In this document: in pieces, positions 2 through 32,494 of the stretch | Layout: each line of letters begins with the position of its first letter | How positions within the stretch are numbered: position 1 is the stretch's first letter | Assembly: GCA_032718475.1 (NCBI GenBank) | Contig: JAUCBJ010007045.1 | Span: forward strand, 1-44,301 | DNA: 44,301 nucleotides | Direction of reading: 5' to 3' | Origin: Nemertoderma westbladi | Taxonomy: Eukaryota > Animalia > Xenacoelomorpha | The notes under the pieces: generated by a model | Told to the model about the DNA's origin: nothing | The model's input: the letters and a program-made list of their open reading frames with translations, nothing else | Database searches by the model: none | Made by a program: the position numbers and the translations under genes

Positions 2-3000
2 TATGGGAAATTTAGTGTCAAAGGATAATGGGGCGTTGGTTAGCCTACCTCCAACACGTATTAACCCATCTATCATGGTACTAGAGAAGCGATCCCTTAA
101 GCGCATCTGTGGATTTCTTAACAACAGGAAATACTTATCGGAATCCTCATAGCATTGTAGGAGTCTCAGCATCTGTTTGTTGGTTTCATCATGCTCCTGG
201 TAACTGATCTTCTCCTTTAGAAACCTGTCGGATATCTTGTATTTGGGAAGATCTTTAACAACATGGACTCGTGCAGATGTTGATGGAGCATCATCACTAT
301 TGGTCTTTGTCCCGGAGTAACGATGATGAAAACATCGTTTCAAATAGGTAACAGCTTTACAGAGCCGATTCCAGGAACTGTAGTGACGTATCGCTCTCTG
401 CAAGAGAGGTGAGAGTCCTTGCGAGATATCTGGTATTCCAGATTTCCAATCCTTGTCACGGATTTCCAAGACTTCTTTAGTCGTGGCGGTGGGTTTCTGA
501 TCCAAAGCATCCTCTCCGGAAGTAAATAATACAGATAGATCAACCGCAGGTTTAAACAACTTCGATTTACTCGCTCGAGTTTTGGGTTTAACTTTCTCCG
601 CTCCCTTGGCCTGTCTGATCTCTGCTGTTGTGAGATGGGGAGGCCATTCTTCTTCTTCCCTGTAGAGAAAGTCAGGTCCTCCTAACCATTCGGGAGTATT
701 TACCAATTCCTTTGGAGTCGCTCCTCGGGACGCGATGTCTGCTGGGTTAATCGTTCCGGGGCAATGTCTCCATTGGTCCATCGTCGTGCGACTAAGTATG
801 ATGGCTACCCTGTTGGTAACGAAGACGCTGAACTGACAGACTTCATTGGTTATATACTCTAACACGAGTAAAGCGTCGGTCCAATAGACAGTTTTCTCTA
901 ATGTATAGTCAATCTGTTCGGTTACATTCCGGCCGATGGCTGTAGCGTATAGAGCCGCTTTTAACTCCGCTCGAGGAACTTTCAACTTGTTGTTGATTAA
1001 TGCCTTAGAAGTAACCAAGGCTACTTTGATTCCATCCGGAGTTTCCACTCTTAGGTAGGCTACTATACCGATTCCCATATCGCTGGCGTCTCCAAACACA
1101 TGGAGTTGATAGGAATACGTAGGGAGAACATGACCAAAATATGAACGGGAAATTATAAACTCCTCGATGGCCGGTAGAGAATCTTCCCATTTCATCCACT
1201 TCTTCAATAATTCTCCCTTAAGTGGATCGTCCCATGAGTGGTTTTCAAGCCACATTTGTTGTACCAAACTTCGAGCAATCAATATAACTGGGCTAATAAA
1301 TCCCAATGGATCGAAATAAGTGCTCAGTATACTTAAGCAAATCCGTTTGGTTCGAACTGGATTATCTCGCTGTTTTAGCTGGAAAAACAGGATATCTCTC
1401 TCTGTGTCCCATTTCAAGCCGAGTGTCTTGGTCTCTGGCAGATCATCTTTGATCAAATCGAGATCTTTCGCTCCTCGATCTTCCGCAGGGATCGACTCCA
1501 GAAACTCACGGGAGTTGCTGGTGAATTTGGTTAATCGAAATCCACCTCTTTTTAAGCACTCTACCGTTCCCTTAGCGACCTCAATGGCTTCCTCAACTGA
1601 TGGGAGGGACTTCAGATTGTCGTCCATGTATATGTCTCTCTTGATGTTGTCGATCACTTCCTTAGAGAATGCCTCTCGGTTGTCCTCTGCAGTAGTACGC
1701 ACTACCGAACAGGCGTTGGAAGGGCTTGAGATTATCCCAAAGGCCTGGATGGTCATCCAGTACTCCACCGGTTTCTGGTTGAGGTCTCCTTCGGGCCACC
1801 ATAGAAATCGTAGGCTATCTCGATCCCTATCCAACACTTTGACTTGCAAGAACATGCCTTCTATATCGGAGGCGAAAGCAATCGAATATTGTCTCAATCT
1901 TAAAAGAATTCCCAACAAAGATTGAAGTAAGTTGGGTCCGGGTAACAATTCAGAGTTAAGGGATTGACCCATGTAAAGAGCGGAGCCATCAAACACTACT
2001 CTCACTTCATTTGGTTTACCGGGTTTAGGAACGTAATGGTGAGTTAAATAATACGTTCTTTCAGTCACAGGTGTTTCTTCCGGTACCCTCTCCGCGTATC
2101 CCTTATTAATAAATTTTTCCAGCTGTGTTTGATACATTGCTTTAGCTGAAGAATTAGCCGTAAGGCGTCGATGGAGTTGCGCGATTCTTTTTTCCGCCAA
2201 AGGTCTGTTATTGATGAACTTCGGTTCTCTCTTGCGAAAAGGTAAACCGACTTCGTACCTTCCTTGATCTTTGAGGAAACGTGTAGTTGTCTCTTGGATC
2301 TGCTTGGCCCTTTCCTCTTCCACCGACAAGGCTTTATCGTAGGAATTGGGCTCTACCGCCTCTTGCGTAAAGAATCGTACAGCATGTTCATCTCGAGTCT
2401 TGGCATTGCAACGCTCAATGACGTCATTTAACTCGTCGTTATAAGCTTCTCGTTCAGATGGATAGAGAAGTTGACATAAGTTCACTTGGTTTTGCCAAGC
2501 CTCGTTTTCCTTAAGGAGATCGATGGTATTCTCCTCATCAAAAAGCTGGTGAACGTCGTCGTTATCTGAGGAGTATGGAATTCCCTCAGTTGAATCGTCT
2601 CCCTCACTAGCATCATCTTCCCATTCACTCACCTGGCAGACTCTCTCTTGCGGTAGTCTTTCTCTGAGTGTTCTACGGGAAGGGCCAGTAAAGTACCAAC
2701 CTACTCTAGTTCTTACCGCATAGGTCTGTAGGGGCTGCGGTTGAGCAGGCCGTTTCTCTAACGTCTCCAGCGCCTCATGCGCGTTTTGGCCGATGAGTAT
2801 TTGCACTCCAGGATAATCAGTCTGGAATCGAGGTATGTTAAGATGTTGGATGCTCTCATCCTCGTCCCAATTATAAAGGTCTGCTTGAGTAGTAGCGAAG
2901 TTCTTTATAGCCACCATTTTCACTGACCTTATGCTGTTTTCTCCTAGTTCGTCCTGGGGGGTGGACAACGCTCCTACATAATAATCAGCTGTTATTGTAG

Positions 3001-6000
3001 ATTTCCAAACTTGCATAATGCCTGACATGTTGAGCTTAGTTTGGAACTTGGGTTGTCCAGCAAATATATCTTCGGCTAACTCTTTATCGATGAATGTTCC
3101 TGTGCTGCCGGAGTCCAGAAGGGCGTTCACTACATAACTCCGTTTAGGTCCGTGCACCCTTACCTGCACCACAGGAAACTCTCGGATCCCTACATTGGAA
3201 GATGGCTCTTTCCAAGATGGTTGTCGTTCAGAAGTAGTTAGAGTAAAGTCGTTGTCTGTATCTTTTTCATATGTGAGTGCTCGATACACTGCGGTATTTA
3301 TCATGTAACAGGATTCGTTTTCGTCGGAGAACTCGTCTGTATAGAATCCTTCCATCTCAGATTGATCAGTATCGTTCACATCACTGAATTGGACATGTAG
3401 CTCGGAATCACTTACCTGATTCGGACTATTTCGATCGAATTCAGCGTGCAACAAGATATGATGTTTCGCACCACACTTTGCACACCTTATGTCAGAGAAA
3501 CAGGTTCGCCGTTGGTGTCCTTGTCTGAGGCAATTATAACATAACCGCTTATCCCACATGACTTCGCGTCTCTCTGTTAATGATTTCTTTAGAAATTCAT
3601 CACACCTATTCAAATGGTGGGTCCCGTCGCACAGCGCACATTTCGGTTTGATGTGACTTACCTTATTTTGAATCACATTGTGTACACTTGCCTTTTCTTC
3701 GGGTTTTCTCACCTGAATTCTCTTGGGAGACGTGGGAGGAGTTTTTCTTACCTGTTCCCTCCTGTCATTTGTTCGAGACTTGAATTTACTTACCTGATCT
3801 TTAGGCATTTTATTCACGTAATAAGATCTATCAATGTCTTTCCCGCTATCTTCTCCTTGAGAAGTCTGGCTTTCGCCGTCGTCTGTATAACACACTGGTG
3901 TTACCTTTCTCCTAGAGACGGGTTTTTCACTTACCTTGTTTTCCGGTTTCTTCTCTCGGGACTGCTTGAGGAGTTGCAATTTCACTTCTCCATCCAAGAA
4001 TGACATGAGATCAGCCATGGTAGGGTCTCGCCGTTGTTGTTCCATCATATATAACACTTTCTTATCCCAGCGTGTACCTACTCCACCTTTCGGTAAAGTA
4101 GAAGCCACTGCTCTAATAACCATAGTATTCTGATACTCATGAGACTTACCTAGCCAATCTAATTGTCTGCAGATCTCCTGGATCTCATCGGAAAACTCGA
4201 TAATTCCGCTACTAATAAACTTTCGGGGAGCTACTAACTTTGCATATAAGTACCCAGCGATATTATTCCTATTACCATACCTGATGTTTAGTGTATCCCA
4301 AACTTGTCTTAATCCGTCTGGATGTCCAATAAACTTTAACGCCATTAACTTGGGAGATCCTTCCAAGCACTCGATGAGGTATCTAAGTTTTTCTCCATTA
4401 GATAGTACAGAGTTCTGTATGTTATCTTTGTAATATTCATTAAAAGGTAACCATTTCATCTCATCTCCATTGAACTTGACGATCTCTCCAACCTTTACCG
4501 CTTGCCGGGCTTCGGTTCTAGCCATTTGACGCGTAAAACTTTCTTGGGCCATTGTGTTATTTAATATCGAATTATCGGTATATAAATTTCTCGGATTATG
4601 ATCAGTTCTATAGGGAATATCATTATCAACAGGTCTATAATTACCCTTAATAGGGTTCACTATAGGAGTTTCTACTTCGCTAGCAGTATAAATGCGTGTA
4701 GGCTCCACACCTTGCGCATGAGATACTTCTGACCTAACGGGTTGACACATTGTTACAGGGGGTGGTGGTATACCCTTTTGTAAATTTACTAATTTATCGC
4801 GCTCTAGCGCGATATTTTGCTGCACTTCTTGCAACTCTAACTTACTTTCCCTCACTGTTCCCTTTAAATGTTGGACAGTCCCTTCCAACTCTCGGACCTG
4901 TTGGGAGGAGAGTCTCCGATTCTCCTTCATCTCTCCGAGGAGAATATCCATTCCCCGCCGTCTCTCGTCTACCCAATCAACCGCCGAAACGGGATCCGCC
5001 AACGTCGTAGCGGGCAGACGAGGGACAACGGGCGACAAATTTGGAATATTTCGCTCGGGGTCCAGGACCTGAACTGTCTCCTGGGCAGTTCTACGGGGCA
5101 CAGGTAGCTTAGTGCTATGCAGAGGGAATTTATAGGTAGCTTCAGGGAGCACAGGTGTATCTATCACCGAAGGGGTGATTTCAAGAACAGGCCTACTTAT
5201 TTCAGGCTCATCTACTATAGTAGGGAGTCTTTCTATTGTAATTATTTGGTCTGTGGGTTCTGTACTCTCTAAGTTGGTGTTGTTTAGTTGCCTTCTAACA
5301 GCTGGAGGCAAATCAGGCAATTTCTGACGGTGGAATGTTCTTTTACGTCTGCTTAGGCGGGATCGATTTCCTCCGCCTTCAGTGTCGGTGGTATCGCCTT
5401 CCTCAGATGATGTATAACCTTGTCGTTTGGGAGTAGATCGATTCATCATCTGCATATTACTAGCTGTTAACTGTTTATTAAAGTTATCTTGCCTCTCTTG
5501 AAGATTTTCCAACTCTAGTTGGGTTGTCTCTTCAGATGCCCTCCGTTCTGCTTCTGCCACTGCTATCTTTCTTTCCGCTTCTGCCGCTGCCGCTTTTGCC
5601 TCTGCCGCTGCCGCTTTCCTTTCCGCCTCTACGGCTGCAGCTGCCGCTTTTGCCTCTGCCGCTGCCGCTTTTATTGCTGCAGCTGCCGCTTTTGCCTCTG
5701 CCGCTGCCTCTGCTGCCTTTCTTTCCGCTTCTGCCGCTGCCACTGTCGCTGCTGCTGTCTTTCTATCTTCTATACGTTTTTTCCTTACTTGTTCTTCCTT
5801 TTCTCTAGCGATGCGGAGTTGTTCATCGAATTTAGCTTGGTTCGCCGCTAACCTATCCACATCAATCGCATCTAACACAAGTTTGGCTCCTTCGCTATTA
5901 GGGCTAAGTCCCTCTAGCCTTCTCCTCAACTCTTCATCTCCCAAAAAACGCTGATAGTCTGACAGATAGATATCAATGGCATCCTTCTTATGCGGTTTCT

Positions 6001-6934
6001 CTGCCGTCGCTTCACTTTCCACTTGGGAAAAAGTAGCGTCCGTCGATTCTCCATGGGTTGAGCGCTCCTCCAACTGAGCTTTCCACTGAGCTGCTCCTTG
6101 AACCTGGCGTCTCACCCTTTGAAGCCAAGTCCTTACGGCAACTTGCAACGACGTGTCTTGTCTTCTTTTAGAAGCCTCTTCAAAGGCGGATAAGATTAGC
6201 CTAATTCGCAGAACTCTTTCTCTAACTTGATAAAGCAGCGATCCCTGCTCTTGAGGTCCTTGAGGTTGTTGAAACAGTTGTCTTTCTACTCGCTCCATAG
6301 AGCTGAAGAATCCCTGTGCGTATCCGGCTGCGGACCTCTTCCATACAGCTGGATCGATGGTTTCCTTGGCTACTCCCATCCGGTGTATGTCTTCCCAGGC
6401 AGCTTCTGATAAATCAAACGGGAGTCCGGGTCCGGGGAAGTTCCATTGCGACTCGACAATAGACTTCAGTTCTTCACTCGAGTACCCCGCATAACTATCT
6501 CTAGTTGATCATTGACTCCTCGCCCAATCGATCTGGTGTTCTTCCACCGCGATCAATAACCTAGTGAGTACGGCTGCAGGAAGGATGAGAAGGGGATCCG
6601 TATAAACCGCATCCGTCATCTCTGCTCCGCGCTCGGGTGTCAGCTCTACAGTATCCTCACTACTGGAGCTGCTGGGCCACTGAGGAATAAGTTCTTGACT
6701 AGCGGGTTGTTGCTGTTCCGCTGCTTTTTGGTCCCGCTTGACCTGAGCTCGAGTGCCTATGATAGACCTACGATGTTGGACCAGCCTAGGTTCTGTTATT
6801 ACTACGGGAGGGATGACCTTCCTCACAGTGGGAGGTGAACTGAACTTACGACCAGACGGTTGTACGTCTCTATCTGAGTCGCAGATAGTTACATCTAATA
6901 AACTGTCTGACAGGTTCTGCTTAGTATCAGACAT
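2..6934 (-). CDS. Bel/Pao Gag-Pol polyprotein (Gag with 3 Zn knuckles, aspartic protease, RT, RNase H, start of integrase region); one in-frame TGA at 6511-6509; 3'-partial
   Basis: Hand translation shows the 141-aa ORF (6934-6509) is in the same frame as the downstream polyprotein. Motifs: Gag IVKFNGDEMKW (~4480), three Cys/His knuckles (~3640-3450), LLDSGSTGTFI (~3110), YMDD (1630-1619), LHVFGDAS (~1100), PRAEL, WTDA, NPADIASRG (~745), GLIRVGGRLTNA (~60). I did not translate every codon of the middle part. Its continuity is inferred from the matching frame at both ends and from the ORF track listing no stop-terminated ORF in this frame. Confidence 0.9.
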
Positions 6935-8257
6935 GACTATGTATACCGTTGAATGTCTACTGCTGTATTACAGTCTGAGTAAGTCTAGTAACTCAGTATT
7001 AACTGCTAGCCTAGTAATTAATTACCGGTACTGCTACTCAGTGTAGCGTGATATATATATAATATATTAGAATACCGGTATACTTATAGTATATATAACT
7101 ATATAAGTATTATTACAGACTAGGTTTATCACAGAATACCGGTATAATTTTAGCACAAATATATAAATATATAATAGGCCTATCGGAATACCGGTATACA
7201 GCTTACAGTTTGTAGTATATATAATTCTGGAATAGAATTAATTACAAGTACCGGTATAATTTCAGCCTAGATTTATAGAAATAAGATAATAGGCCTATCG
7301 TAAATACCGGTATATCAATTATTTTAGAATAATTGAATTTCTGAACTTTAGGGTTACGTGGTTACTTTAACTTACTTTATTACCGTTATTTAAGCAGTAA
7401 TCCAACTGATATTGAGACCTAATGGTTTTATGGTAGGCCTACTATTTATAAATCGTTAGATTTGATTTATAATGTATTTATACCCGTTTTAATGGGTTTA
7501 GTCAATGTTTGAAATAAATGTTATTATTTCTGGGGAGTAATCACTACACAAAGCGGTGCGCTTTCAGTGAAGTGTTACTTATAGGACACTAAAACAAATA
7601 ATTCTAATTTACCTAAGTTACTTAATACTACAAATTACGTACAATTCGGGTTGAGATTACAATCTCTAAATAAACACAAAAATTTACAAAAACGCAAATA
7701 CGAAATTTTTAGGGTAATTTTACAAGAAGTCTACAAACCAGCCTAACAAAGGGTTAGAATTCTGGTTATTATAACGGACAGGGTACTACGGTATTTGAAA
7801 TAATAAGTAGTAGTAAATACACTGCGTTGTCCAGATAGGAAAATACCACCGCCTGACGACCTATAGCCGTATCGCTATAGGTTCTACGTTATGTATCACG
7901 GAGTATTCCTACCTAGAAGTTAATAGAGCTAATCGAACGTGCCTATTAACCACTTTACAACACAAATATAATGCCTACACTAATTACTTCGGAAAGTACT
8001 GTACACTAAACCCTAAATTAGGTACGAGTACTTGTACAACAGATAATCAGTAGTTAAATATACTTGAACAGCTAAAAGAACCACGGCATCTGCTGGAGTG
8101 ACCGATGCACAAAATCACCAGTCTTTACCTACGCCGAGCAGCCCGTGTAGTACCGGAGTTAATTTAACTATAGCGGTATGTATAACAAACACAATTACTG
8201 TAGGAACAAACTTGGGGAATGAATGTTGCGGATAATCGCATAAACTCTGAATAATAA

Positions 8258-9179: not shown

Positions 9180-9191
9180 TATATCCTTTAA
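9180..9191 (-). promoter_or_regulatory. Non-tRNA primer-binding site of copy A (TTAAAGGATATA on the minus strand), complementary to LTR 9933-9944
   Basis: Abuts the LTR terminal ACA with no spacer, has no TGG start, and is an exact 12-nt inverted match to 9933-9944. Confidence 0.7.
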
Positions 9192-10386
9192 TGTTCGCGC
9201 TTTCAGACCTTTGGCAGTTTAATCCGCCAAATTAAGATGTCTTCTAGATATTAAATCGCTTTTTAGCTTATGACAAGTATTTGATTCACTACACTAGTCG
9301 AAACCAATCTGTGCGCGACTATTCACCCGCTGGATATTCCCGGGAGATTGGGTTCGACGGTTTAATTTTATTGCTATGTAAGCCTAATGTATTATTCGAC
9401 TGACAGTGTTATATAATCTCTGACAATATTATTCACCTTCGGGAATATTAACAGTTCCTTTAGGACGTGGCGCTTTATTTATATAAACAGAGTTATGACT
9501 TAAACTACTCACAACGATATGGCTTAATTATAATTCACATATATGGCGCATTCTTTAGGAAATGCTTCTTTAACAGACTCACTCATACACAATGCTGCAC
9601 AATACTGCACACTAATCTGCCAATCTTCACTGATTTTAGTCACATATAAAAGGAACACAGACTGACTCATGTAGGGTCTATCAAATAACATTAGATTCAC
9701 TTCAAACCACTTTAACATAAGTCACAATCGTTATTGGTAACCTTTCTCTCTTACCTTCGGTATATCAAGAATATTGGGTGTCGGGGTTATTTCTCGTTAT
9801 TCCAATATAATAATTCATCAACAAATATAATGAATAACCGACAACAAATAGCAGTATGCAGTATTCACAGATCAATCGTGCCAGTTTGTTTTGAGTTAAG
9901 ACAATCAGTCAGTCATCAGTGTGTTTTGTTTGTTAAAGGATATATGTCCTTATAATTAAACCTACTAGTGTTGAGCTAAAAAGCAGAAAGCACAAAACAC
10001 TAAAAAGCCGTTCTTTCGTGGCTTTGAAAAACTCGTGACTACTGCTCTATACGAGGATACCAACTACCCTTATTCCACGAAGCTCCCGTTCAACACAGAG
10101 AAAGAGCAGTGAGATAGGAAATTTTCAGTTCAGTAGCTCTGTGATAGGTCAAAATCAAGGCTAACTCAAATTCTATTGGGAGATACAAAAACAAGGCTAT
10201 GACGCAACCTCCCTAGGCTTGTTGGCCGATTAAACAGAGCCCAGATGCCTGCGCACAGCAAATCAGCCAATAAGCTGGTAACTTGCACTATTTTTAGCTA
10301 TAGATCACTTTGAGAGTATTCTTAGCGACTGGGGGGGAACTGGCCAACAAGGCAAACGAATCAGTTATCCCACAAAAGCTTTTACA
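9192..10386 (-). repeat. 5' LTR of Bel/Pao copy A (1195 bp)
   Basis: TGT...ACA termini on the minus strand. 9192-~9865 is nearly identical to the copy B LTR 3' portion. AATAAA on the minus strand at 9372-9367. Confidence 0.92.
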
Positions 10387-10602
10387 GGTGGCGAAGTAAA
10401 GACGAGGTCATACCAGATCTACTTCTCTGGCAACCAACTCATGGAAAGCGTAGTCGTGGACGACCGGCCATAACATATATAGATCAACTTGAAAGGGATA
10501 CTGAACTTGGGAGAAACGAAATTGCGACAACTATGGAGAATCGGGAAGCCTGGAAGGATCTCATCTCCACTGTCCGAGTTCGCTCGACCTAGTAGTAGTA
10601 GT
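10387..10602 (+). mobile_element. 3' end of an RTE-clade non-LTR retrotransposon, interrupted by Bel/Pao copy A
   Basis: Translates as WRSKDEVIPDLLLWQPTHGKRSRGRPAITYIDQLERDT..MENREAWK, an RTE C-terminal signature, followed by a (TAG)n tail at 10590-10602. Confidence 0.8.
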
Positions 10603-16730: not shown

Positions 16731-16843
16731 GTATGATGTATTGAAGTAACTGATAATTTAATAATAATCAAGATTAAGGCGAAACTGCGAACGAAAAGAG
16801 TACACTACACCCCAGTAAAATTGCTAATATTCAATAATAATCG

Positions 16844-17719: not shown

Positions 17720-18652
17720 CCCGGCGATATTGACTCTTTGGTTGCCTCCTGGAATTATAATTGTGGTTGACTATGTTCTACGCATGTCCTTAGATCATCA
17801 TAATGATGATGGGGTGATGATTATAACTCCACCTACTGGCTCCAGAAGTCGATGAAATCCTGCCAAGTACCTAACTGATCTAGACTTTGCTGATGACTTA
17901 GGAGTACTCTCAGAATCACTAGAGGGAGCCCAACGGCTCCTCAGCTCATTAGAACATGCTGCTTCTAGTGTTGGTCTTTTTATTAACTCCAGAAAGACCA
18001 AAATTTTGACAGTTAACTTTGAAAGTCCTCAGCAAGTCTCTGATCGGATGAGCTTAAGCTCAAAGGATGGTATGCTTGAGCATGTGGACGACTTCTGTTA
18101 CCTGGGATCATGGATCCTTCGAATACGTAAGGGAAAGGCATGGGCAGCCTTGAATAGGCTCTCCAGGTTTTGGAAGTTACCGAGAATTAATCTGAAACTT
18201 AAGGTCCGATTATTTAGAGCAGCAGTAGTTCCAGTACTCCTCTATGGGAGTCCATGGATGGCACATTCACAAGAAGGCTACGCCGGGTTCATTGTATCAA
18301 GTACAATGCACACATCTCCAACCAGACACTATAACATTGGAGGTGTCTCATTGGTTCCCCCAAGCTTGACACTAGAACAAAATCGCCTCCGCTTTGCAGG
18401 ACATTGCTTTCGCCGTGAGGACCAGCCAGTGCATAATCTTACTTTGGCAGCCTCATGGAGTGAATAAGCATGGTGGACAGCCCATGACTTTCTTGAGACG
18501 CATCTTAAAGGACACTGGCCTTGAAGATGCGGATAATCTAGCAAATGTCATTCGTGATAGGGAGTTGTGGCGGTGCAATTTTGTCGACAAGCCGGCACAG
18601 CATTCTTAAAAATGCAGCTGCAATATAGCATGCCGATCCTAGTCCTAGTAGT
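17720..18652 (+). mobile_element. 5'-truncated, degenerate RTE-clade LINE (RT C-terminal half)
   Basis: LTDLDFADDL, VGLFINSRKTK, VDDFCYLGSWI, RLRFAGHCFR, with a TAG-type tail at ~18638-18652. Frameshifts and deletions relative to the copy at 43302-43903. Confidence 0.9.
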
Positions 18653-19366: not shown

Positions 19367-20282
19367 ATACCGAACTATATTCAGTTTTTAATTTGTTTAA
19401 TCGAGAATTTGAGGGATTAAATTGACATTAGATACGGAATTTCATCAATCCCGTTATGTTTAATTTTGGTGGGCCTGCGTTTTTAACCACACAACTTATA
19501 ACCAACAGTTGCAGTGCTAAAATCTAAAATAAGTCCAATTGTTGAATACAATTGAAAGATCAGAAATCTATACAGTAAGCTAACTAGCTAAGGGTTAAAT
19601 TAAGGAAATTATACTACACAACACAAACACCATGGTAAATGCATTTCTCCCTAAAAATGTACCATTACCATAAGTTTCTCTATTCAATCTACAATATTTT
19701 GTACTAAAATTTGATTGATTCTTGCCGGGGGCTGACATGTACATTGGTGTATGGTTTTTCCTTTGGACATGTGAAACGGAAGGTCTTTTACTATCGATTT
19801 TAAAATAAATTTGTTTGAACGAAATTTGAAACTTGCATCAACATTCAGTATATATGTACAGTACCTGAAGAAGAACTGTACTAAAGTCTGAAAGCTCGTA
19901 CCTAAACCGTACCTATTATTTCCCTTTTGTTTGTGGGTGAAGACCTTTCTATTATATTAACTGTAGGCCTACTATAAATTTGTTTCTTCTAAAATGCTGA
20001 AATATAGTCCAAAAATTGGTTGAGTTATATCCGCTACAGTATAATAAAATTCCAAGAAAACGTTTTGAAGCAAGCGAAGGGATGTTAACTGTAAGTCTCC
20101 CTTCGGCGTAAGATTTAATGTTGGATTTGCAGCACGAAGCTGCACATTTGAATGTAAATTTGATTTTCGAGGCAGTATCGAAAAATAATTATATTCTATT
20201 GCTTCTACCTGTTTACAGTTCATATCCGCTTAATGTTTAGTGCGTTGTACCCACCCCGCCCATATTTAGTTGTCTGGGGCGG

Positions 20283-21528
20283 TGTAAAAGCCTTTGCTGA
20301 ATTGCCCCGTTATTTTTATTATCTTTTACATTAAAATACTCTGTAGTTGATTTAATAAGTGTAAGAGACCGTATTATTGCTGTATCGGTGTTTTTAGAGG
20401 ATCTAAGACCTATTTCCTCCGTATGTGTACTGTGAAAGGCATATTTTATGAATCTATGGCAATTCGTGACGCAAAGGGGTGATAGCTACTCTTGAACAGT
20501 AGTTACTATGACTACGGTTAACAGCTGACATTCATATGTGTTGATTTCCTTTGTTCTACGGCGTCTCTCAGTTCAGTCAGCCAATTAGAGCGTTTTTGTG
20601 GCTCCTTGTACAGAAAATTTCCGAGAAATGACGCAATGCCTATGTGCAGTGTTTACATTCAGTCCTGAGCCAAAGAAAGAACGGCTTGGAAGTATTTTGT
20701 GCTTTACTGTTTTTTAGTCTTACACTAGTAGGTTTAATTATAAAGGGCATATATCCTTTAACCTAACGACTACCTGACTCATGGAATCACTGCTAACTGA
20801 TCATACATACTGACTGCTGAAACATTGCAAACTCATAACAATCAGTGTTCAGTTGTTGTTTTATACTGCTATTTGTTGTCGGTTATTCATTATATTTGTT
20901 GATGAATTATTATATTGGAATAACGAGAAATAACCCCGACACCCAATATTCTTGATGTGCCGAAGGTAAGAGAGAAAGGTTACCGATAAACGATTGTGAC
21001 TTATGTTAAAGTGGTTTGAAGTGAATCTAATGTTATTTGATAGACCCTACATGAGTCAGTCTGTGTTCCTTTTATATGTGACTAAAATCAGTGAAGATCG
21101 GCAGATTAGTGTGCAGTATTGTGCAGCATTGTGTATGAGTGAGTCTGTTAAAGAAGCATTCCTAAAGAATGCGCCATATATGTGAATTATAATTAAGCCA
21201 TATCGTTGTGAGTAGTTTAAGTCATAACTCTGCTTATATAGATAAAGCGCCACGTCCTAAAGGAACTGTTAATATTACCGAAGGTGAATAATATTGTCAG
21301 AGATTATATAATACTGTCAGTCGAATAATACATTAGGCTTACATAGCAATAAAATTAAACCGTCGAACCCAATCTCCCGGGAATCTCCAGCGGGTGAATG
21401 GTCGCGCACGGATTGGTTTCGACTAGTGTAGTGAATCAAATACTTGTCATAGACTAAAAACAGATTTAATATCTAGAAGACATCTTAATTTGGTGGGTTA
21501 AACTGCCAAAGGTCTGAAAGCGCGAACA
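20283..21528 (+). repeat. 5' LTR of copy B
   Basis: Direct repeat of 30857-32102. The only difference I saw is T20537 vs C31111. TATAAA at ~20739 and AATAAA at 21348-21353. Confidence 0.96.
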
Positions 21529-21540
21529 TTAAAGGATATA
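21529..21540 (+). promoter_or_regulatory. Non-tRNA primer-binding site of copy B (TTAAAGGATATA), complementary to LTR 20750-20761
   Basis: Directly follows the LTR ACA and is the exact reverse complement of TATATCCTTTAA at 20750-20761. Confidence 0.7.
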
Positions 21541-21824
21541 GCTTCTTTGTTGCAGTAAGCAATAAAGTTGAAAGTACCGGTCAACCGGTAAACCTGAACG
21601 GTACACCTGTAGGTCAGTAGGCCTAACTGTTCTAACCGGTACTTCAGTATAAGTACACTAGTATTATTCGATTTGATTGTTGCATACCGGTAGGCTGTTT
21701 AAGGGATTAGGGATTGATCACCCCTTATACCTTTATATGGTTTACTTGTTTCTGTCAAGTTTTATTTATTTGTAGGCCAGTATTGAACAGAAGGCGTGTA
21801 AGCCTGATCAGATAGTACAGACGA

Positions 21825-22388
21825 TTTGTAGGCTGAGCTGTTGTCTGATTGCTGTTAAGTCCGAACGAATTGCAGTGTGTGTAGATCACCTGTCCGATTA
21901 AGTACGATTAGGCAGTAGGGGCAGCGAACGCTGTAAGGTAATCCCCCAACTAAAGAATAAGTCGCACTACTGGGTTAGAGCGCATACTCCCTAATCATTT
22001 CGGAGTCTGCATGTCCTGTAGTTTATTTAGGCTTGAGAGTAGTCTGCCATCGTTTGGTCTGTACTTTGTTTGTGTAAGTCTGTACGGGTAGCGTATAATT
22101 TTATTTAGATAATTTGTAGGCTGGATAGTTGTCTGGCTGTTATTAGGTCTGAACGGATTGCCGCGTGTGTAGATCATCTGTCCGATTAAGTACGGTTAGG
22201 CAGTAGGGGCAGCGAACGCTGGAAGGTAAACCCCCAACTAAAGAATAAGTCGCACTACTGGGTTAGAGCGCATACTCCCTAATCATTTCGGAGTCTGCAT
22301 ATACCGTAGTTTGTTTAGGCTTGATAGTAGTCTGTCAGTGTTCGGTCTGTATTTTGTTTGAGTAGTTTGTACGCGTAGCGTAATATTT
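21825..22388. repeat. ~288-bp tandem duplication in the leader of copy B
   Basis: Units start at ~21825 and ~22113. Homologous to 8258-8820. Confidence 0.85.
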
Positions 22389-23710
22389 ATTATTCAGAGT
22401 TTATGCGATTATCCGCAACATCCATTCCCCAAGTTTGTTCCTACAGTAATTGTGTTTGTTATACATACCGCTATAGTTAAATTAACCCCGGTACTACACG
22501 GGCTGCTCGGCGTAGGTAAAGACTGGTGATTTTGTGCATCGGTCACTCCAGCAGATGCCGTGGTTCTTTTAGCTGTTCAAGTATATTTAACTACTGATTA
22601 TCTGTTGTACAAGTACTTGTACCTAATTTAGGGTTTAGTGTACAGTACTTTCCGAAGTAATTATTGTAGACATTATATTTGTGTTGTAAAGTGGTTGATA
22701 GGCACATTCGATTAGCTCTATTAACTTCTAGGTAGGAACACTCCGTGATACATAACGTAGAACCTATAGCGATACGGCTATAGGTCGTCAGGCGGTGGTA
22801 TTTTCCTATCTAGACAACGCAGTGTATTTACTACTACTTATTATTTCAAATACCGTAGTACCCTGTCCGTTGTAATAACCGGTTTTCTAACCCTTTGTTA
22901 GGCTGGTTTGTAGACTTCTTGTAAAATTACCCTAAAAATTCGTATTTTGTGTTTTTGTAAATTTTTGCATTTATTTAGAGATTGTAATCTCACCCGAATT
23001 GTACGTAATTTGTAGTATTAAGTAACTTAGGTAAATTAGAATTATTTGTTTTAGTGTCCTATACGTAACACTTCACTGAAAGCGCACCGCTTTGTGTAGT
23101 GATTACTCCCCAGAAATAATAACATTTATTTCAAACATAGACAAAACCCATTAAAACGGGTATATATATATTATAAATCAAATCTAACGATTTATAAATA
23201 GTAGGCCTACCATACAACCATTAGGTCTCAATATCAGTTGGATTACTGCTCAAATAACGGTAGTAAAGTAAGTAAAGTAACCAAGTAACCCTAAAATACA
23301 GAAATTCAATTATTTAAAATAATTGATATACCGGTATTTACGATAGGCCTATTATCTTTATTTCTATAAATTTAGGCTGAAATTATACCGGTACTTATAA
23401 TTAATTCTAGTCCAGAATTATATATACTACAAACTGTAAACTGTATACCGGTATTCCCGATAGGCCTATTATATATTTATATATATTTGTGCTAAAATTA
23501 TACCGGTATTCTGTGATGAACCTAGTCTGTAATAATACTTATATAGTTATATATACCATAAGCATACCGGTGTTCTAATATATTATATATATATCCTACT
23601 ACACTGAGTAGCAGTATCGGTAATTAATTACTAGGCTAGCAGTTAATACTGAGTTACTAGACTTGCTCAGACTGTAATACAGCAGTAGACATTCAACTGT
23701 ACACACAAAC

Positions 23711-24704
23711 ATGTCTGACGCAAAGCAGAACCTGTCAGACAGTCTACTAGATACAACGGAGAGTGAAGCGACAGCAGAGAAACCGCATAAGAGGGATGCC
23801 ATTGATATCTATCTGTCAGACTATCAACGTTTTTTAGGTGATGACGAATTGAGGAGAAGGTTAGAGGGACTTAACCCTAATAGCGAAGGAGCCAAGTTTG
23901 TGTTGGACGCAATAGATGCGGAAATGTTGGCAGCGAATAGAGCGGAAATTGATGAAAGAATCCGCATCGTTAGAGAATGGGAACAACAGTTGAAGAAAAA
24001 ACGTATAGAAGACAGAAAGATAGCAGCAGTGGCAGAGGCGGAAAGAAAAGCGACCTTGGCAGAAGCAGCGGCAGAGGCAAAAGCGGCAGCAGCAGAAGCA
24101 GAGGCAAAGGCAACAGCGGCAGCAGCAGAAGCAGAGGCAAAGGCAACAGCGGCAGCAGCAGAAGCAAAGGCAGAGGCAAAAGCGGCAGCGGCAGAGGTAA
24201 AAGCGGCAGCGGTGGCGGAAGCAGAACGGAGAGCATCTGAAGAGGCAACCCAACTAGAGTTGGAAAATCTTCAAGAGAGGCAAGACAACTTCAATAAACA
24301 GTTAACAGCTAGTAATATGCAGATGATGAGTCGATCTACTCCCAAAAGACAGGGATATACATCATCGGAGGAAGGCGATACCACCGATACTGAAGGCAAA
24401 GGAAATAGATCTCGTCTAAGCAGACGTAAAAGAAATTCCACCGTCAGAAATTGCCTGATTTGCCTCCAGCTGTTAGAAGGCAACTAAATAACACCAACTT
24501 AGGTAGTACAGAGCCCACAGACCAAATAATTAAAATAGAAAGACTCCCTACTATAGTAGATGAGCCTGAAATAAGTAGGCCTGTTCTTGAAATCACCCCT
24601 TCGGTGATAGACATATCTGTGCTCCCTGAAGCTACCTATAAATTCCCTCTACAACTGCCCGAGAGACAGTTCAGGTCCTGGACCCCGAGCGAAATATTCC
24701 GAAT
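23711..24704 (+). pseudogene. Frameshifted N-terminal part of copy B Gag (contains an Ala-rich EAKAAAA repeat)
   Basis: ORFs 23711-24487 and 24451-24774 match consecutive parts of the single copy A frame. Relative to A there is a 1-nt deletion at ~24435 and a 28-nt deletion at ~24650. Confidence 0.85.
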
Positions 24705-27700
24705 TTGTCGCCCGTTGTCCCTTGTCTGCCCGCTACGACGTTGGCGGATCCCGTTTCGGCGGTTGATTGGGTAGACGAGAGACGGCGGGGGATGGATATT
24801 CTCCTTGGAGAGATGAAGGAGAATCGGATACGCTCCTCCCAACAGGTCCGAGAGTTGGAAGGGACTGTCCAACATTTAAAGGGCACAGTAAGGGAAAGTA
24901 GACTAGAGTTGCAAGAGGTGCAGCAAAGTATTGCGTTAGAATGCGATAAATTAGTGAACATACAAAGGGGTATAACACCACCCCCTGTAACAATGTGTCA
25001 ACCCGTTAGGTCTGAAGTATCTCATGCGCAAGGTGTGGAACCTACACGCATATATACTGCTAGCGAAGTAGAAACTCCTATAGTAAACCCTATTAAGGGT
25101 GATTATAAACCTGTTGATAATGATATTCCATATAGACCTGATCATAATCCGAGAAATTTAGATACCAATAATTCTATATTCAATAATACGATGGCTCAAG
25201 AAAGTTTTACGCGTCAAATGGCTAGAACCGAAGCCCGTCAAGCGGTAAAGGTTGGAGAGATTGTCAAGTTCAATGGAGATGAGATGAAATGGTTACCTTT
25301 TAATGAATATTACAAAGATAACATACAGAACTCTGTACTATCTAACGGAGAGAAACTTAGATTCCTCATCGAATGTTTGGAAGGACCTCCCAAGTCAATG
25401 GCGTTAAAATTTATTGGACATCCAGATGGATTAAGACAAGTTTGGGATACACTAAACATCAGGTATGGTAATAGGAATGACATAGCTGGGTATTTGTATG
25501 CAAAATTAATGGCGCCCCGAAAGTTTCTTAGCAGCGGGATTATAGAGTTTTCCGATGAGATTCAGGAGATCTGTAGACAATTAGATTGGCTAGGTAAGTC
25601 TCATGAATACCAGAATTCTATGGTTGTAAGAGCCTTAGCATCTGCTTTGCCCAAGGGTGGAGTAGGTACACGCTGGGATAAGAAGGTGTTATATATGATG
25701 GAACAACAACGACGAGACCCTACCATGACTGATCTCATGTCATTCTTAGATAGAGAAGTGAAATTACAGCTCCTAAGGCAGTCCAGAGAGAAGACATTGG
25801 AAAACAAAGTAAGTGAGAAACCCGTTTCTAGGAGAAGGGTAACACCAGTATGTTATACCGACGACGGTGAAAGCCAAACCTCTCAAGGAGAGGACAGCGG
25901 GAAAGACACTGACAGGCCTTATTATGTCAATAAAATGCCTAAAGAACAGGTAAGTAAATCCAAGTCTCGACCCAATGACAGAAGGGAACCGGTACAAAAA
26001 AACCCTCCTACGTCTCCTAAAGGAATTCAGGTGAGAAAGCCCGAGGAAAGAACAAGTGTGCACCACATAGCACAGGTTAAAGTAAGTAACATCAAGCCGA
26101 AATGTGTGCTGTGCGACGGGCCCCACCGTTTAAATGCGTGTGATAAATTCCTGAGGAAATCACTCGAGGATAGACGTGAAGTCATGTGGGATAAGCGGTT
26201 GTGTTATAATTGCCTCAGACGAGGACACCAACGGCGAACCTGTAACTCCGACGCAAGGTGTGCAAAGTGCGGCGCAAAACATCATATCTTGTTGCACACG
26301 GAATTCGAACGAAACAGCCCGAGTCAGGTAAGTGAGTCCGAACTACATGTCCAATTCAGTGATGTGAACGACACTGATCAATCTGAGATGGAAGGATTCT
26401 ATACGGACGAGTTCTCCGACCAAAACGAATCCTGTTACCTAATAAACACCACCGCAGTGTATCGAGCACTCGTGTATGAGAAAGACACAGACAGCGACCT
26501 TGCCTTAACTACTTCCGATCAACAACCATCTTGGAAAGCGCCAACTTCCAATATAGGAATCCGAGAATTTCCTGTAGTCCAGTTACGGGTCCACGGACCT
26601 CAGAAGAGCTATATAGTGAACGCCCTCCTGGACTCCGGTAGCACAGGAACATTCATCGATAGGGAACTAGCCGAAGTCATCTTTGCTGGACAACCCAAGT
26701 TCCGAACCATGCTAAACATGTCAGGGATCATGCAGGTTTGGAATTCTACTGTAGCTGCCGACTATTATATAGGTGAGTTGTCCACCCCCCAGGACGAACT
26801 AGGAGAACATAGCATCAGGTCAGTGAAAATGGTGGCTATAAAGAACTTCGCTACTACTCAAGCAGACCTTTATAATTGGGACGAGGATGAGAGCATCCAA
26901 CATCTTAACATACCTCGATTCCAGACTGATTATCCTGGAGTGCAAATACTCATCGGCCAAAACGCGCATGAGGCGCTGGAGACATTAGAGAAACGGCCTG
27001 CTCAACCGCAGCCACTACAGACCTATGCGGTAAGAACTAGAGTAGGTTGGTACCTTACTGGACCTTCCGGTAGAACGCTCAGGGAAAGACTGCTTCAAGA
27101 TCGCGTCTGCCAGATGAGTGAATGGGAAGATGATACTAGTGAGGGAGACGACCCAACTGAGGGAACACCACACTCCTCAGATAATGACAATCTTAGCTCC
27201 AATGTAGATCAATGGAGATATTGCCCCAAGAAGTTTAATCCAACGGACATCGCTTCCAGAGGAGCAACTCCTCAAGAACTGACAGATACTACAGACCGAT
27301 TAGGTGAACCCGACTTCCTGAGTAAGGAGAATGAATGGCCTCCCCATCTTACTCCGACTGAGATTATACCAGCCAAGGGAGCGGAGAAAGTCGAACCTGA
27401 AACCCGGACGTGTGGATCGGAGTTATTTGAACCCGGGATAGATCTGTCGGTATTACATGTTGCCAGGGACGACGCCGTGGATCTGGGCCTCCCCACCGCG
27501 AGTGGATCCTTCATGAAGATCAGAGAGAGCGATTGGAGCTCTGGAACATCAGACGTCTCGCAGGGACTCTCACCTCTCCTGCAGAGAGCGACGGACCACT
27601 ATAGCTCCTGGAATCGGCTTTGTGACGCCGTCATCTACTTTGAGCGATGTTTCTATCGTCACTATTCCAGGACGAAGAGGAAACCTGGAATTGTATTCAG

Positions 27701-27842
27701 GATGCAGCGACTCAATCACCCAGTCGGTCGTTTGTGTTTATCGGAAGGGAATGGAGGACTCTCCGGAAACTGTGGAAGGCAAGATTCTCTTCCCACGACC
27801 ACCTCCCTAATCCTTCAAACATCTAGGGACTCCATAACGTAA
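24705..27842 (+). CDS. Copy B Gag core, Zn knuckles and aspartic protease fused in frame to the post-RNase H linker (1045 aa from TTG; first ATG at 24792)
   Basis: Gag core (KFNGDEMKWLPF..LSNGEKLRFL), CVLCDGPHRLNAC, CYNCLRRGHQRRTC, CAKCGAKHHILLH, LLDSGSTGTFI, GWYLTGP, then directly QWRYCPKKFNPTDIASRG. No YxDD motif. Confidence 0.85.
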   Translation: MSPVVPCLPATTLADPVSAVDWVDERRRGMDILLGEMKENRIRSSQQVRELEGTVQHLKGTVRESRLELQEVQQSIALECDKLVNIQRGITPPPVTMCQPVRSEVSHAQGVEPTRIYTASEVETPIVNPIKGDYKPVDNDIPYRPDHNPRNLDTNNSIFNNTMAQESFTRQMARTEARQAVKVGEIVKFNGDEMKWLPFNEYYKDNIQNSVLSNGEKLRFLIECLEGPPKSMALKFIGHPDGLRQVWDTLNIRYGNRNDIAGYLYAKLMAPRKFLSSGIIEFSDEIQEICRQLDWLGKSHEYQNSMVVRALASALPKGGVGTRWDKKVLYMMEQQRRDPTMTDLMSFLDREVKLQLLRQSREKTLENKVSEKPVSRRRVTPVCYTDDGESQTSQGEDSGKDTDRPYYVNKMPKEQVSKSKSRPNDRREPVQKNPPTSPKGIQVRKPEERTSVHHIAQVKVSNIKPKCVLCDGPHRLNACDKFLRKSLEDRREVMWDKRLCYNCLRRGHQRRTCNSDARCAKCGAKHHILLHTEFERNSPSQVSESELHVQFSDVNDTDQSEMEGFYTDEFSDQNESCYLINTTAVYRALVYEKDTDSDLALTTSDQQPSWKAPTSNIGIREFPVVQLRVHGPQKSYIVNALLDSGSTGTFIDRELAEVIFAGQPKFRTMLNMSGIMQVWNSTVAADYYIGELSTPQDELGEHSIRSVKMVAIKNFATTQADLYNWDEDESIQHLNIPRFQTDYPGVQILIGQNAHEALETLEKRPAQPQPLQTYAVRTRVGWYLTGPSGRTLRERLLQDRVCQMSEWEDDTSEGDDPTEGTPHSSDNDNLSSNVDQWRYCPKKFNPTDIASRGATPQELTDTTDRLGEPDFLSKENEWPPHLTPTEIIPAKGAEKVEPETRTCGSELFEPGIDLSVLHVARDDAVDLGLPTASGSFMKIRESDWSSGTSDVSQGLSPLLQRATDHYSSWNRLCDAVIYFERCFYRHYSRTKRKPGIVFRMQRLNHPVGRLCLSEGNGGLSGNCGRQDSLPTTTSLILQTSRDSIT

Positions 27843-29135: not shown

Positions 29136-30850
29136 CTAACGGACAAATGGCCCGAATGTGTGTAATTTGTGACAAGTTGTGTGTATGGTATTTGTGAGTT
29201 TATAGGTGAATGTTACTGCTAAGGTGTGTTTACAGTAGCCAGTCGCAATCGTAAAGTAACCTAACTCTCCAAGGAATACCTGAAGTACATCTTAGCCTTT
29301 GGGACGGACAGTCGAGTGACTTGTGCCGGTTGTCGTTGTCGTTGTGCGGCTACGTCGTTGGCGAAAGTACGGCGGCGACGACACATCGGCGCTGAGGATC
29401 TCGTACTGTCCGGGGGTTAATTGGAGTAGGCAGCGACGCTCGCTAGCCTGAATATAAACTCATTATAATATGGATAAACTCATATAGCAGATATGGTTGA
29501 GTTGATAGAAGATGATCTTGGTATCGGGGAGCGATATACTCTACTTTTGCAAGCGTTTGTTGATAGCTTAATACGCGGTGACGTTAGTCTAACTGCTGCG
29601 GAGGACGATGGTCGTTATATCGAACCGACAATGTCCCAAGTGCAGCTCTCGCGAGAGTTGGACTATAGAAAATTCGCTGCTCGCTACACGCATTGTAATG
29701 GTATGTATATGGACTTCTTAACCATTGACCATTCTATCGATTTACACAATACGGACTATGTCGACTATATATCCTGCCCAGCGGAGTCTGAACCATAAAC
29801 TGAAATTCGAATGCGAAAATTCTATTCGAAATCGGCTCGAAAGAAAAGACATTAAAGAAACAAATAAACGCGGTAACTCCAACATATATTTGGAATTCTT
29901 GATAGAATCATTGTAACCACAAATAAATATCATCCGCGTTTCCCCTACCAGACGTGCGTCTTGGGTATTATTACGGTAAATGCCCTAGACCCAGCCAATG
30001 AACGGAAAGACATAAACATCCACGTAAACCGAAACTTGTTGACGTATCACCTATGCTCACTCGGCTCGAACGATCCTGGAGTAAACCTACGATCAGAGTC
30101 CCGGAATACTCGGTCAAACCTCCTCATTCCTTAGTTGGACCTCAGACCTGCGATCTTGGTGGTGTCGCGGATCCTCGCGGACTGTATTCACTGTTCAAAG
30201 ATCTAGTGCTACCCTAACAATTAATCGGTAACACTCCGACAGTGATTTCTAGCTAGCCGCCCATCTTACCTAGCCGGATTGTGACGCGGACACCTAATAT
30301 CACTATCCAACCGTATGGTCGTCCACGTTTAACACGATACAACCCCTCATCAAGGGGAAGGAGAGCGTTGTACGAAACGAGTTAAACGCTATTTTATAAA
30401 GATCAAAAAGGAAACCTGCGTTTGTTCAGATAAACGTAAGTTATAACGGTGAGTCCAATCGATAAACGAATTGGCCTTATCTCAATTCGATTGGGAAATC
30501 CAGAATCTCTAAGAAGTTATCGAACTTGGACGATCCTATTCTCTGCGAGAGTTTTTGGATGAACGTATCCAGCTACGAGCGGAGGAAAATCAGCTCGAGG
30601 AGAAGCATATCGAAACGGTAGATACCTCGACCACAATCCTACACCTTCTGATGCAATCATATTGCACCCTTCACCCAGGAGTTATGGCCCTCCTAGTAAA
30701 GTGGCTCCCCCCAAAGAGAAAAAGACTCTTGCTAGCCTCAAAAAACTGCGTAAACGCCGTCTGCGTAAGAAAGACTAACTGTTTAGAGTATCTTTATGTT
30801 TTAGAAACTGTGATTTTTATATTCTATAGACTGAAAATCCCATTTTCTGG
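29136..30850 (+). pseudogene. Possible decayed accessory ORF in the 3' (env-position) region of copy B, function unknown
   Basis: Higher GC than the flanking UTR. ORF pieces at 29493-29798 and 30555-30908, a Cys-rich start, and long frames broken only by TAA/TAG. Confidence 0.35.
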
Positions 30851-30856
30851 GAGCGG
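30848..30856 (+). promoter_or_regulatory. Short polypurine tract (TGGGAGCGG) before the 3' LTR
   Basis: Purine-rich run directly upstream of the 3' LTR TGT. Confidence 0.65.
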
Positions 30857-32102
30857 TGTAAAAGCCTTTGCTGAATTGCCCCGTTATTTTTATTATCTTT
30901 TACATTAAAATACTCTGTAGTTGATTTAATAAGTGTAAGAGACCGTATTATTGCTGTATCGGTGTTTTTAGAGGATCTAAGACCTATTTCCTCCGTATGT
31001 GTACTGTGAAAGGCATATTTTATGAATCTATGGCAATTCGTGACGCAAAGGGGTGATAGCTACTCTTGAACAGTAGTTACTATGACTACGGTTAACAGCT
31101 GACATTCATACGTGTTGATTTCCTTTGTTCTACGGCGTCTCTCAGTTCAGTCAGCCAATTAGAGCGTTTTTGTGGCTCCTTGTACAGAAAATTTCCGAGA
31201 AATGACGCAATGCCTATGTGCAGTGTTTACATTCAGTCCTGAGCCAAAGAAAGAACGGCTTGGAAGTATTTTGTGCTTTACTGTTTTTTAGTCTTACACT
31301 AGTAGGTTTAATTATAAAGGGCATATATCCTTTAACCTAACGACTACCTGACTCATGGAATCACTGCTAACTGATCATACATACTGACTGCTGAAACATT
31401 GCAAACTCATAACAATCAGTGTTCAGTTGTTGTTTTATACTGCTATTTGTTGTCGGTTATTCATTATATTTGTTGATGAATTATTATATTGGAATAACGA
31501 GAAATAACCCCGACACCCAATATTCTTGATGTGCCGAAGGTAAGAGAGAAAGGTTACCGATAAACGATTGTGACTTATGTTAAAGTGGTTTGAAGTGAAT
31601 CTAATGTTATTTGATAGACCCTACATGAGTCAGTCTGTGTTCCTTTTATATGTGACTAAAATCAGTGAAGATCGGCAGATTAGTGTGCAGTATTGTGCAG
31701 CATTGTGTATGAGTGAGTCTGTTAAAGAAGCATTCCTAAAGAATGCGCCATATATGTGAATTATAATTAAGCCATATCGTTGTGAGTAGTTTAAGTCATA
31801 ACTCTGCTTATATAGATAAAGCGCCACGTCCTAAAGGAACTGTTAATATTACCGAAGGTGAATAATATTGTCAGAGATTATATAATACTGTCAGTCGAAT
31901 AATACATTAGGCTTACATAGCAATAAAATTAAACCGTCGAACCCAATCTCCCGGGAATCTCCAGCGGGTGAATGGTCGCGCACGGATTGGTTTCGACTAG
32001 TGTAGTGAATCAAATACTTGTCATAGACTAAAAACAGATTTAATATCTAGAAGACATCTTAATTTGGTGGGTTAAACTGCCAAAGGTCTGAAAGCGCGAA
32101 CA
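30857..32102 (+). repeat. 3' LTR of copy B
   Basis: 1246-bp direct repeat of 20283-21528, followed by the GGCGG TSD. Confidence 0.96.
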
Positions 32103-32494
32103 GGCGGGTGTTTGCAAAAGGTGGACTGGACACAGAAGACCAATCAGAAACGTATTAAGCAAAGCAGTTTGTAGTGATTGGTCTGTCCAGTTTTCGTTTC
32201 TTAATTACGTATTTGGCTTAATTACGCCGATATCTCAGCTATTTCTCAACGAACTAATAGTTGTTTACTACTTACTTATTTAGAATCGTTGCAACGACAG
32301 CTTTCCAATTCCTCGAACCACTATAAGGATGAAGAATTACTGCGGTGGGACTAGTTGGTGCAATATCGACAAAAATATATTTTATTAAAGAATTTATTTT
32401 CATGCAGTAATTATAATAATAATTAGCATGATTTTATCAATAAAACTACATAGGGGGGGCTATTGTATATTGTAGCCTACAATGCAATATATAA

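Follow-up and report, generated by a model that had tools for sequence, protein, structure and literature searches.

A Bel/Pao retrotransposon family in Nemertoderma westbladi predicted to use the 5' end of its transcript as the primer for reverse transcription

How does an LTR retrotransposon begin reverse transcription when the site that follows its 5' LTR offers no TGG for the end of a tRNA? Members of the Belpaoviridae are described by the ICTV as having an 18-nt primer-binding site (PBS) for host tRNA-Arg or tRNA-Gly (PMC8742986). The question is raised by an element, copy A, in a contig of Nemertoderma westbladi (JAUCBJ010007045.1), of which the whole stretch analysed, 44,301 nt, is referred to as the window. 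The original prediction was that the PBS of copy A is flush with the LTR end, lacks TGG and is the exact reverse complement of a 12-mer within the same LTR, and that the element primes itself as the Tf1 element of fission yeast does. The position of the PBS and its exact complementarity were confirmed, and the AATAAA at 21348 and the TATAAA at 20739 are present in the LTR as described (Table 1). The nearest TGG 3' of the LTR lies at +210, with none in the first 209 nt, and no tRNA genes were found in the window. We consider it quite probable, from the sequence comparisons presented below, that this family, which has no tRNA-type PBS, uses the 5' terminus of its transcript as a primer in cis, in a manner like that of Tf1.

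Table 1. Positions of the features of copies A and B in the window.
Feature	Position	Strand	Remarks
5' target-site duplication GGCGG	20278..20282	+	identical 5-mer at 32103-32107
5' LTR, copy A (TGT...ACA, 1246 bp)	20283..21528	+	one mismatch to the 3' LTR
Conserved block with putative start and primer	20722..20762	+	39/41 identical between A and B
TATA-like heptamer	20739..20745	+	overlaps the upstream arm of a local hairpin predicted to form with the 12-mer
Putative transcription start, A of CA	20749	+	A at -1/-2 in 24/26 families; folding
Predicted self-primer, 12 nt, TATATCCTTTAA	20750..20761	+	exact reverse complement of 21529-21540
AATAAA polyadenylation signal	21348..21353	+	no other AATAAA in LTR; R predicted at ~600 nt
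Predicted U5 stems by the PBS	21402..21525	+	21402-21414 with 21511-21525; hairpin 21489-21510; P 0.6-1.0
PBS without TGG, TTAAAGGATATA, flush with LTR end ...GCGCGAACA (21528)	21529..21540	+	
Predicted hairpin 3' of the PBS	21545..21567	+	P 1.0; pair preserved in copy B despite a substitution at 21549
Broken gag-protease, copy A	23678..27842	+	two frames; DUF1759, zinc knuckle, LLDSG
Polypurine tract GGGAGCGG	30849..30856	+	abuts the 3' LTR
3' LTR, copy A	30857..32102	+	second copy of the 12-mer at 31324-31335
3' target-site duplication GGCGG	32103..32107	+	5-mer matches 20278..20282
gag-pol, copy B	2..6967	-	152-codon frame, in-frame TGA 6511-6509, then 2169 open codons
PBS, copy B	9180..9191	-	identical to the PBS of copy A
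5' LTR, copy B	9192..10386	-	U3 differs from copy A; primer site 9944-9933

The two LTRs of copy A are of equal length and have a sole mismatch, at 20537. Copy A was probably inserted recently, and because its LTRs differ at only 1 of 1246 bases the PBS that it carries probably served that insertion. RT, most of RNase H and integrase are missing from copy A. Approximately 1.8 kb that copy B has (RT and most of RNase H) is absent from copy A near 27190-27205, and no integrase similarity was found in copy A with four full-length relatives as queries; the ~3 kb at 27843-30848 has no such similarity and holds short frames at 29478, 29877 and 30513 without a Pfam match. Copy A is non-autonomous as it is without RT and integrase, and it would have been moved in trans (RT and RNase H) by a helper such as the copy B family. 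Copy A interrupts a GC-rich hairpin in one of its arms (CACCCCGCCC...GGGGCGGGTG; 20248-20282 and 32103-32110), and the 13 bases 5' of the 5' LTR resemble the polypurine tract of the same element. A strong donor-like site, GAAG/GTAAGAG, lies at 20964-20972 in the predicted R region, and the leader (21529-23710) is 2.2 kb long and contains a 288-bp duplication (21819-22364); with such a site and leader a spliced message that lacks the PBS is conceivable. Two further frames lie in the window, a DnaJ-domain frame at 16841-17560 and an intron-less PTPA of 313 aa at 38642-39583 that is at most 58% identical to animal proteins among the matches listed. These frames point to either a divergent host lineage or processed copies.

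The family is assigned with the help of copy B, which lies on the opposite strand. The 2169-codon frame of copy B leaves the window before the integrase core, and its pol encodes protease, RT (YMDD at 1630) and the RNase H acidic motifs, in that order. Matches were obtained to DUF1759 (E 1.8e-11) and Peptidase_A17 (E 3.6e-36), and a search with the RT-RNase H region returned 1046 proteins, the best 120 of which are 39-44% identical and all have PF05380. The named sources among the 120 matches listed are cnidarians, echinoderms, molluscs, a nemertean and a fish. The Gag-PR-RT-RNase H order with Pao-type domains is thus present in copy B, and copy A retains gag-PR only. Additionally, copy A has TG...CA ends, a target duplication and a polypurine tract 5' of its 3' LTR, and its LTR length is at the upper limit of the ~0.2-1.2 kb of Bel/Pao elements; it does not have the 18-nt PBS for a host tRNA 3' end. 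Pol is not that of a chromovirus (Ty3/gypsy), and the Pao-type domains place the family outside the Tf1/sushi group. By its proteins the family of copies A and B is Bel/Pao, and its priming, as predicted here, departs from the Belpaoviridae description. No relative was found in the viral contig collection with the protein or the alignment as query. Copy B adjoins a LINE-like fragment, and fragments of other reverse-transcriptase elements are located at 10560-11500 (-), 17856-18650 and 43302-43874.

The first matter to be decided is whether the 12-nt match could be fortuitous. The expected number of chance 12-nt matches in the LTR of copy A is 3.1-3.7e-4 (the earlier estimate was less than 1 in 1000), and a contiguous search with offsets of 0-2 reached 12 nt in 0/200 dinucleotide shuffles. 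A looser search (offsets 0-5 plus spliced joins) reached 12 nt in 1/150 shuffles, and when the PBSs of other families were searched against the copy A LTR under this rule, 11 nt was obtained for 1/21 and 10 nt for 1/21. The match in copy A is therefore only suggestive by itself, and it is the relatives that carry the case. Additionally, the 12-mer overlaps a local inverted repeat, and TTAA-AGG here resembles Kolobok/T2-like termini (TTAA plus AGG...CCT), so the complementarity might be a by-product of a palindrome or of such termini. The arms end at 12 nt, however, and the element has LTRs, a polypurine tract and a 5-bp duplication. Since the site is also conserved between diverged flanks and the relatives repeat the geometry with unrelated letters, both described below, we regard chance or a by-product of this kind as most improbable. 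A primer built by splicing was considered for copy A itself and rejected, as the best candidates reached 8 nt and 6 nt, no better than shuffles. Under the rule used for self-priming in plant elements (at least 10 nt complementary to the element's 5' LTR, in a site that begins 0-5 nt past the LTR end), copy A has 12 nt at offset 0.

Relatives of the family were collected by two scans that gave 101 loci, the metagenome scan contributing the best 80 of 505. Their RT-RNase H regions are ~35-45% identical to that of the family. Long direct repeats were present in 48/101 loci and the other 53 were left out except L087; both LTR ends were set by the repeat itself in 28 loci, 25 without TGG and 3 of the TGG type. 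The permitted PBS offset was raised from 2 to 5 after the LTRs had been inspected, and 150 shuffles were searched under the same widened rule. It was determined that 21/25 loci without TGG pair over 10-15 nt with their own LTR (p<=0.02 against the 150 shuffles), 17 of them across a GT-AG intron and 4 contiguously. Significant pairing with the own LTR was not found for L004, L044, L088 and L091, of which L004 and L044 reach 10 nt once the 5' LTR is used. None of the three TGG-type loci pairs in this way, their best matches being 4, 4 and 7 nt. In a cross test of 22 families (21 relatives plus copy A), matches of at least 11 nt were found with the own LTR in 17/22 cases and with a foreign LTR in 7/462; the corresponding figures are 19/22 and 19/462 at 10 nt, and 9/22 and 1/462 at 12 nt.

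Loci in which the LTR end was found by scanning gave similar results. A first set gave 10-15 nt in 9/9 loci, three of which are copies of families already counted, and a second set in 5/8, L067, L086 and L097 failing; such lengths at scanned ends were matched by at most 1/20 shuffles, and L074, L093 and L096 stand outside these counts. Additionally, the sister pairs L043/L049 (contiguous) and L080/L083 (spliced) have matched changes at primer and PBS. Eleven stretches from two contaminated genomes added L102, a distant TGG-type element, and gave no testable self-primer. Prokaryote genome bins of the GTDB (L080-L101, G001-G005) carry animal Bel/Pao contigs as host contamination, with 13 matches in G004. 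A distant Bel/Pao family is represented by L103-L105, of which L103 and L104 have an extra 572-codon frame after pol; the LTRs of L103-L105 were not found in the stretches examined.

These results bear on a second alternative, in which some host RNA or tRNA fragment is the primer, whereas the pairing serves a structural role in packaging, dimerisation or the control of translation. Half-tRNA primers without TGG do occur in plant copia elements according to the available text of PMC6317226, and TGG-type elements sit amid self-complementary ones in the tree described below. The letters of the PBS, however, differ in nearly every family yet match the LTR of the same element, 0-5 nt from the LTR end, and host RNAs would not be expected to track such a match. 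A search of 20200-23800 against Rfam gave nothing at E<=1, which is a weak test for a 12-mer. Taken together, a structural pairing with a host primer appears quite improbable.

Within the family, the primer site and the PBS are identical in copies A and B, so the covariation that the original prediction called for is not seen at this level; it is seen among the relatives, in which PBS and LTR site change together. The conservation of the PBS between A and B says little in itself, judging from the sequence around it, since the background is 97% identical. The primer site lies in a different setting. The identity of A and B by alignment is 39% over 20283-20667 (U3), 70% over 20668-20721 and 34% over 20763-20862, and the remainder of R-U5 is 97% identical. 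Between these diverged flanks the 41-bp block is conserved (95%) and stops one base past the 12-mer. Together with the joint changes in relatives, this supports the self-priming interpretation.

The 100 bases that follow the primer (20763-20862 against 9931-9830) thus have 34% identity as opposed to 97% elsewhere in R-U5. The same boundary appears in contigs from one public run, X1, the kind of which is unknown. The contig that spans copy A has differences that, among those listed, resume at 20763, one contig departs from the copy B reference at 9932, and further sequence versions begin at the same base, directly after the primer. These divergent bases may mark a strand-transfer boundary. On copy B, neither site is changed among the 28 substitution places listed for this run. 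The joints in the X1 contigs are not GT-AG and give no evidence on splicing either way.

If the 5' end of the RNA is the primer, transcription should start at or next to the 12-mer. The start context was compared in 26 families (25 relatives plus copy A), some of which are sisters and hence not independent. An A is found at -1 or -2 of the primer in 24/26 families (binomial p 3e-7), -2 being A in 19, and a C directly follows the primer in 19/26. The primer usually ends in AAC followed by C, with a paired C as its last base in 20/26 families; in copy A it ends in TAA, the last A being paired, and the C that follows is unpaired. The original prediction placed the start just after the TATA-like box, at a spacing that it described as closer than canonical; this box is probably not the promoter. 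A TATA-like hexamer at -25 to -35 occurs in just 2/26 families, and although L035 has a TATA-like motif at -11 like that of copy A, its sister L030 has the same primer without the motif. A box at -11 is, on this comparison, probably not a canonical promoter TATA; read as one, the box at 20739 would place the start 3' of the primer, which is a point against self-priming. From the A that most families share just before the primer, and from folding, we infer that transcription would begin without a TATA box at the 5' edge of the primer, here at A20749. The purine-rich bases before the primer were also considered as a downstream promoter element, a reading that was rejected because RGAY occurs in 7/26 families and no fixed initiator was seen by eye 28 nt upstream.

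Folding of the RNA from 20749 predicts the 12-bp primer-PBS helix with P ~0.97 in both copies. When the RNA starts 33 nt earlier, at 20716, the probability of the helix is 0.04-0.43 at 25-37 C and 0.31-0.87 at 15 C, the earlier start weakening the helix because a local hairpin competes. The helix is predicted at P>=0.79 in 13/18 relatives folded. Stems are predicted on both sides of the PBS, and there are nine A/B substitutions in 21395-21575, of which three fall in stems, each changing G-U to a Watson-Crick pair, one in a loop, and the remaining five outside the stem assessment; those at 21410 and 21494 preserve predicted pairs of the U5 stems. Two lengths count against the model. The loop between primer and PBS is 767 nt in copy A, whereas the 25 relatives have loops of 44-278 nt, and the distance from the primer to the poly(A) signal is 587 nt as compared with 1-134 in the 18/25 relatives that have one. 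A hairpin that hides the primer copy in the 3' LTR was predicted in copy A and L043 and was rejected as a general rule, since it was not clear in the other three contiguous relatives folded.

The same primer might be supplied differently, by another RNA molecule or by a 5' end that extends further upstream: a short capped transcript, a dimer partner RNA, a solo-LTR transcript or an upstream start that is cut only at the 3' end of the primer. The loop in copy A is three times the longest in relatives, the upstream sequence contains TTAGT (20714-20718), which resembles an initiator, and a pyrimidine tract followed by AGs that resemble acceptors, and spliced relatives that started at the primer would have a first exon of just 3-9 paired bases plus 1-2. 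Against this, the helix in cis is strongly predicted from 20749 and is weaker with an earlier start, and the A just before the primer is common to nearly all families. A supply of this kind is considered unlikely.

In the cis reading that we prefer, transcription would start at or beside A20749 and the first 12-13 nt would fold back across a loop of 767 nt to pair with the PBS, which is flanked by two stems. The RNase H of the element would cut past the paired stretch, after 20761, as in Tf1, and RT would extend from the cut, with the terminal TGT as the first bases copied. The strong-stop DNA would then jump to the 3' R region, and U3 and the primer would be restored from the 3' LTR.

The predicted self-priming, originally proposed for this Bel/Pao lineage, is not peculiar to it; the trait is spread over a wide range of Bel/Pao elements. 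The primer is interrupted by a predicted GT-AG intron in the majority of relatives, and in copy A it is contiguous. The donors of these introns are GTRAG in 18/20 spliced families and GTAAGT in 14, and since the search demanded GTR only, this extension suggests that the predicted introns are real. Most self-complementary families are thus predicted to assemble their primer when an LTR intron is removed by splicing, and copy A would be one of the contiguous forms, without the intron, that are scattered through a wide group of mostly spliced primers.

In the RT-RNase H tree copy B is a long branch, with no relative of more than 45% identity. The contiguous and spliced forms are intermixed (6 or more switches of state across the 25 labelled rows), and we infer that introns were lost by copying a spliced 3' LTR. 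When distant outgroups are included, copy B is the first to split off, and the TGG-type elements fall inside the set of spliced families. The TGG-type L026, L042 and L052 cluster together among self-complementary families, and a tree that joins the TGG type with the outgroups was rejected (p-AU 0.009; LG+G4, with long branches in play). It is possible that L026, L042 and L052 represent a return to tRNA priming, or their position may be a rooting artefact. We lean slightly towards a broader reading, in which a large and overlooked branch of animal Bel/Pao elements primes without tRNA. Most of its families would splice an LTR intron, so that the primer exists only at the spliced 5' end; the present element would belong to one of several lineages from which the intron disappeared when a spliced 3' LTR was copied, and would prime unspliced across ~770 nt, and tRNA priming may even have come back within the branch.

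The original statement that no description of self-priming was known for Bel/Pao agrees with the literature, in so far as no description was found in full-text sources and the ICTV gives tRNA priming; notes on the PBS of single families could stand in supplements, Repbase, GyDB or subscription journals. The available main text of the Bel/Pao surveys PMC3118150, PMC6238403, PMC8556966 and PMC554778 contains neither 'PBS' nor 'tRNA', and the accessible portions of PMC8220671, PMC3601003, PMC12451622 and PMC5006619 hold nothing on Bel/Pao priming. The feature is real and would represent a known mechanism in a new form, within a superfamily described as tRNA-primed. If true, a third LTR superfamily, in animals, would join the self-primers, contrary to the ICTV description of the Belpaoviridae. 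Priming that is independent of tRNA would, we expect, escape control via tRNA supply or tRNA fragments. Self-priming would account for the failure of PBS-based annotation to detect these elements and would provide a simple means of classifying them. In the relatives with a spliced form, host splicing would be coupled to the onset of reverse transcription, and since the switches between spliced, contiguous and tRNA forms fall on a single tree, the evolution of priming can be put to the test. The predictions for copy A are exact, with a start at 20749-20750 and a cut after 20761.

The closest known system is that of Tf1 and Tf2 of Schizosaccharomyces pombe, in the Tf1/sushi group. In the available texts on these elements, the PBS after the 5' LTR complements 11-12 nt of the own LTR (PMC7175516, PMC10085805), the mechanism of Tf1 is proven (PMC7175516, PMC5341516), as opposed to the sequence-based prediction made here, and it involves a structure of three duplexes (PMC10085805). 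As in Tf1, a stem is predicted here between the U5 end and LTR sequence beside the central helix. Where the Tf1 'pretzel' has a third duplex, between the LTR and sequence after the PBS, a local hairpin is predicted here instead. Unlike the Tf1/sushi elements, the family has a Bel/Pao Pol (DUF1759, Peptidase_A17) rather than that of a chromovirus, and a far larger loop. Self-priming has also been predicted for the plant TAR copia elements (Houba, Osr-1) and for the gypsy Tcn1 lineage, from an LTR match of at least 10 nt starting 0-5 nt after the LTR (PMC6317226). Copy A has such a match. These elements belong to other superfamilies and hosts, and no spliced primer is reported in the accessible text of that study. 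The Belpaoviridae differ from the present family in the tRNA-type PBS given by the ICTV (PMC8742986). The family resembles them, including the aquatic clades Sinbad, Sparrow, Surcouf and Suzu, in its TG...CA LTRs, gag-PR-RT-RH order, Pao-type domains and polypurine tract, and its closest proteins, among the matches listed, are likewise found in cnidarians, echinoderms, molluscs and fish.
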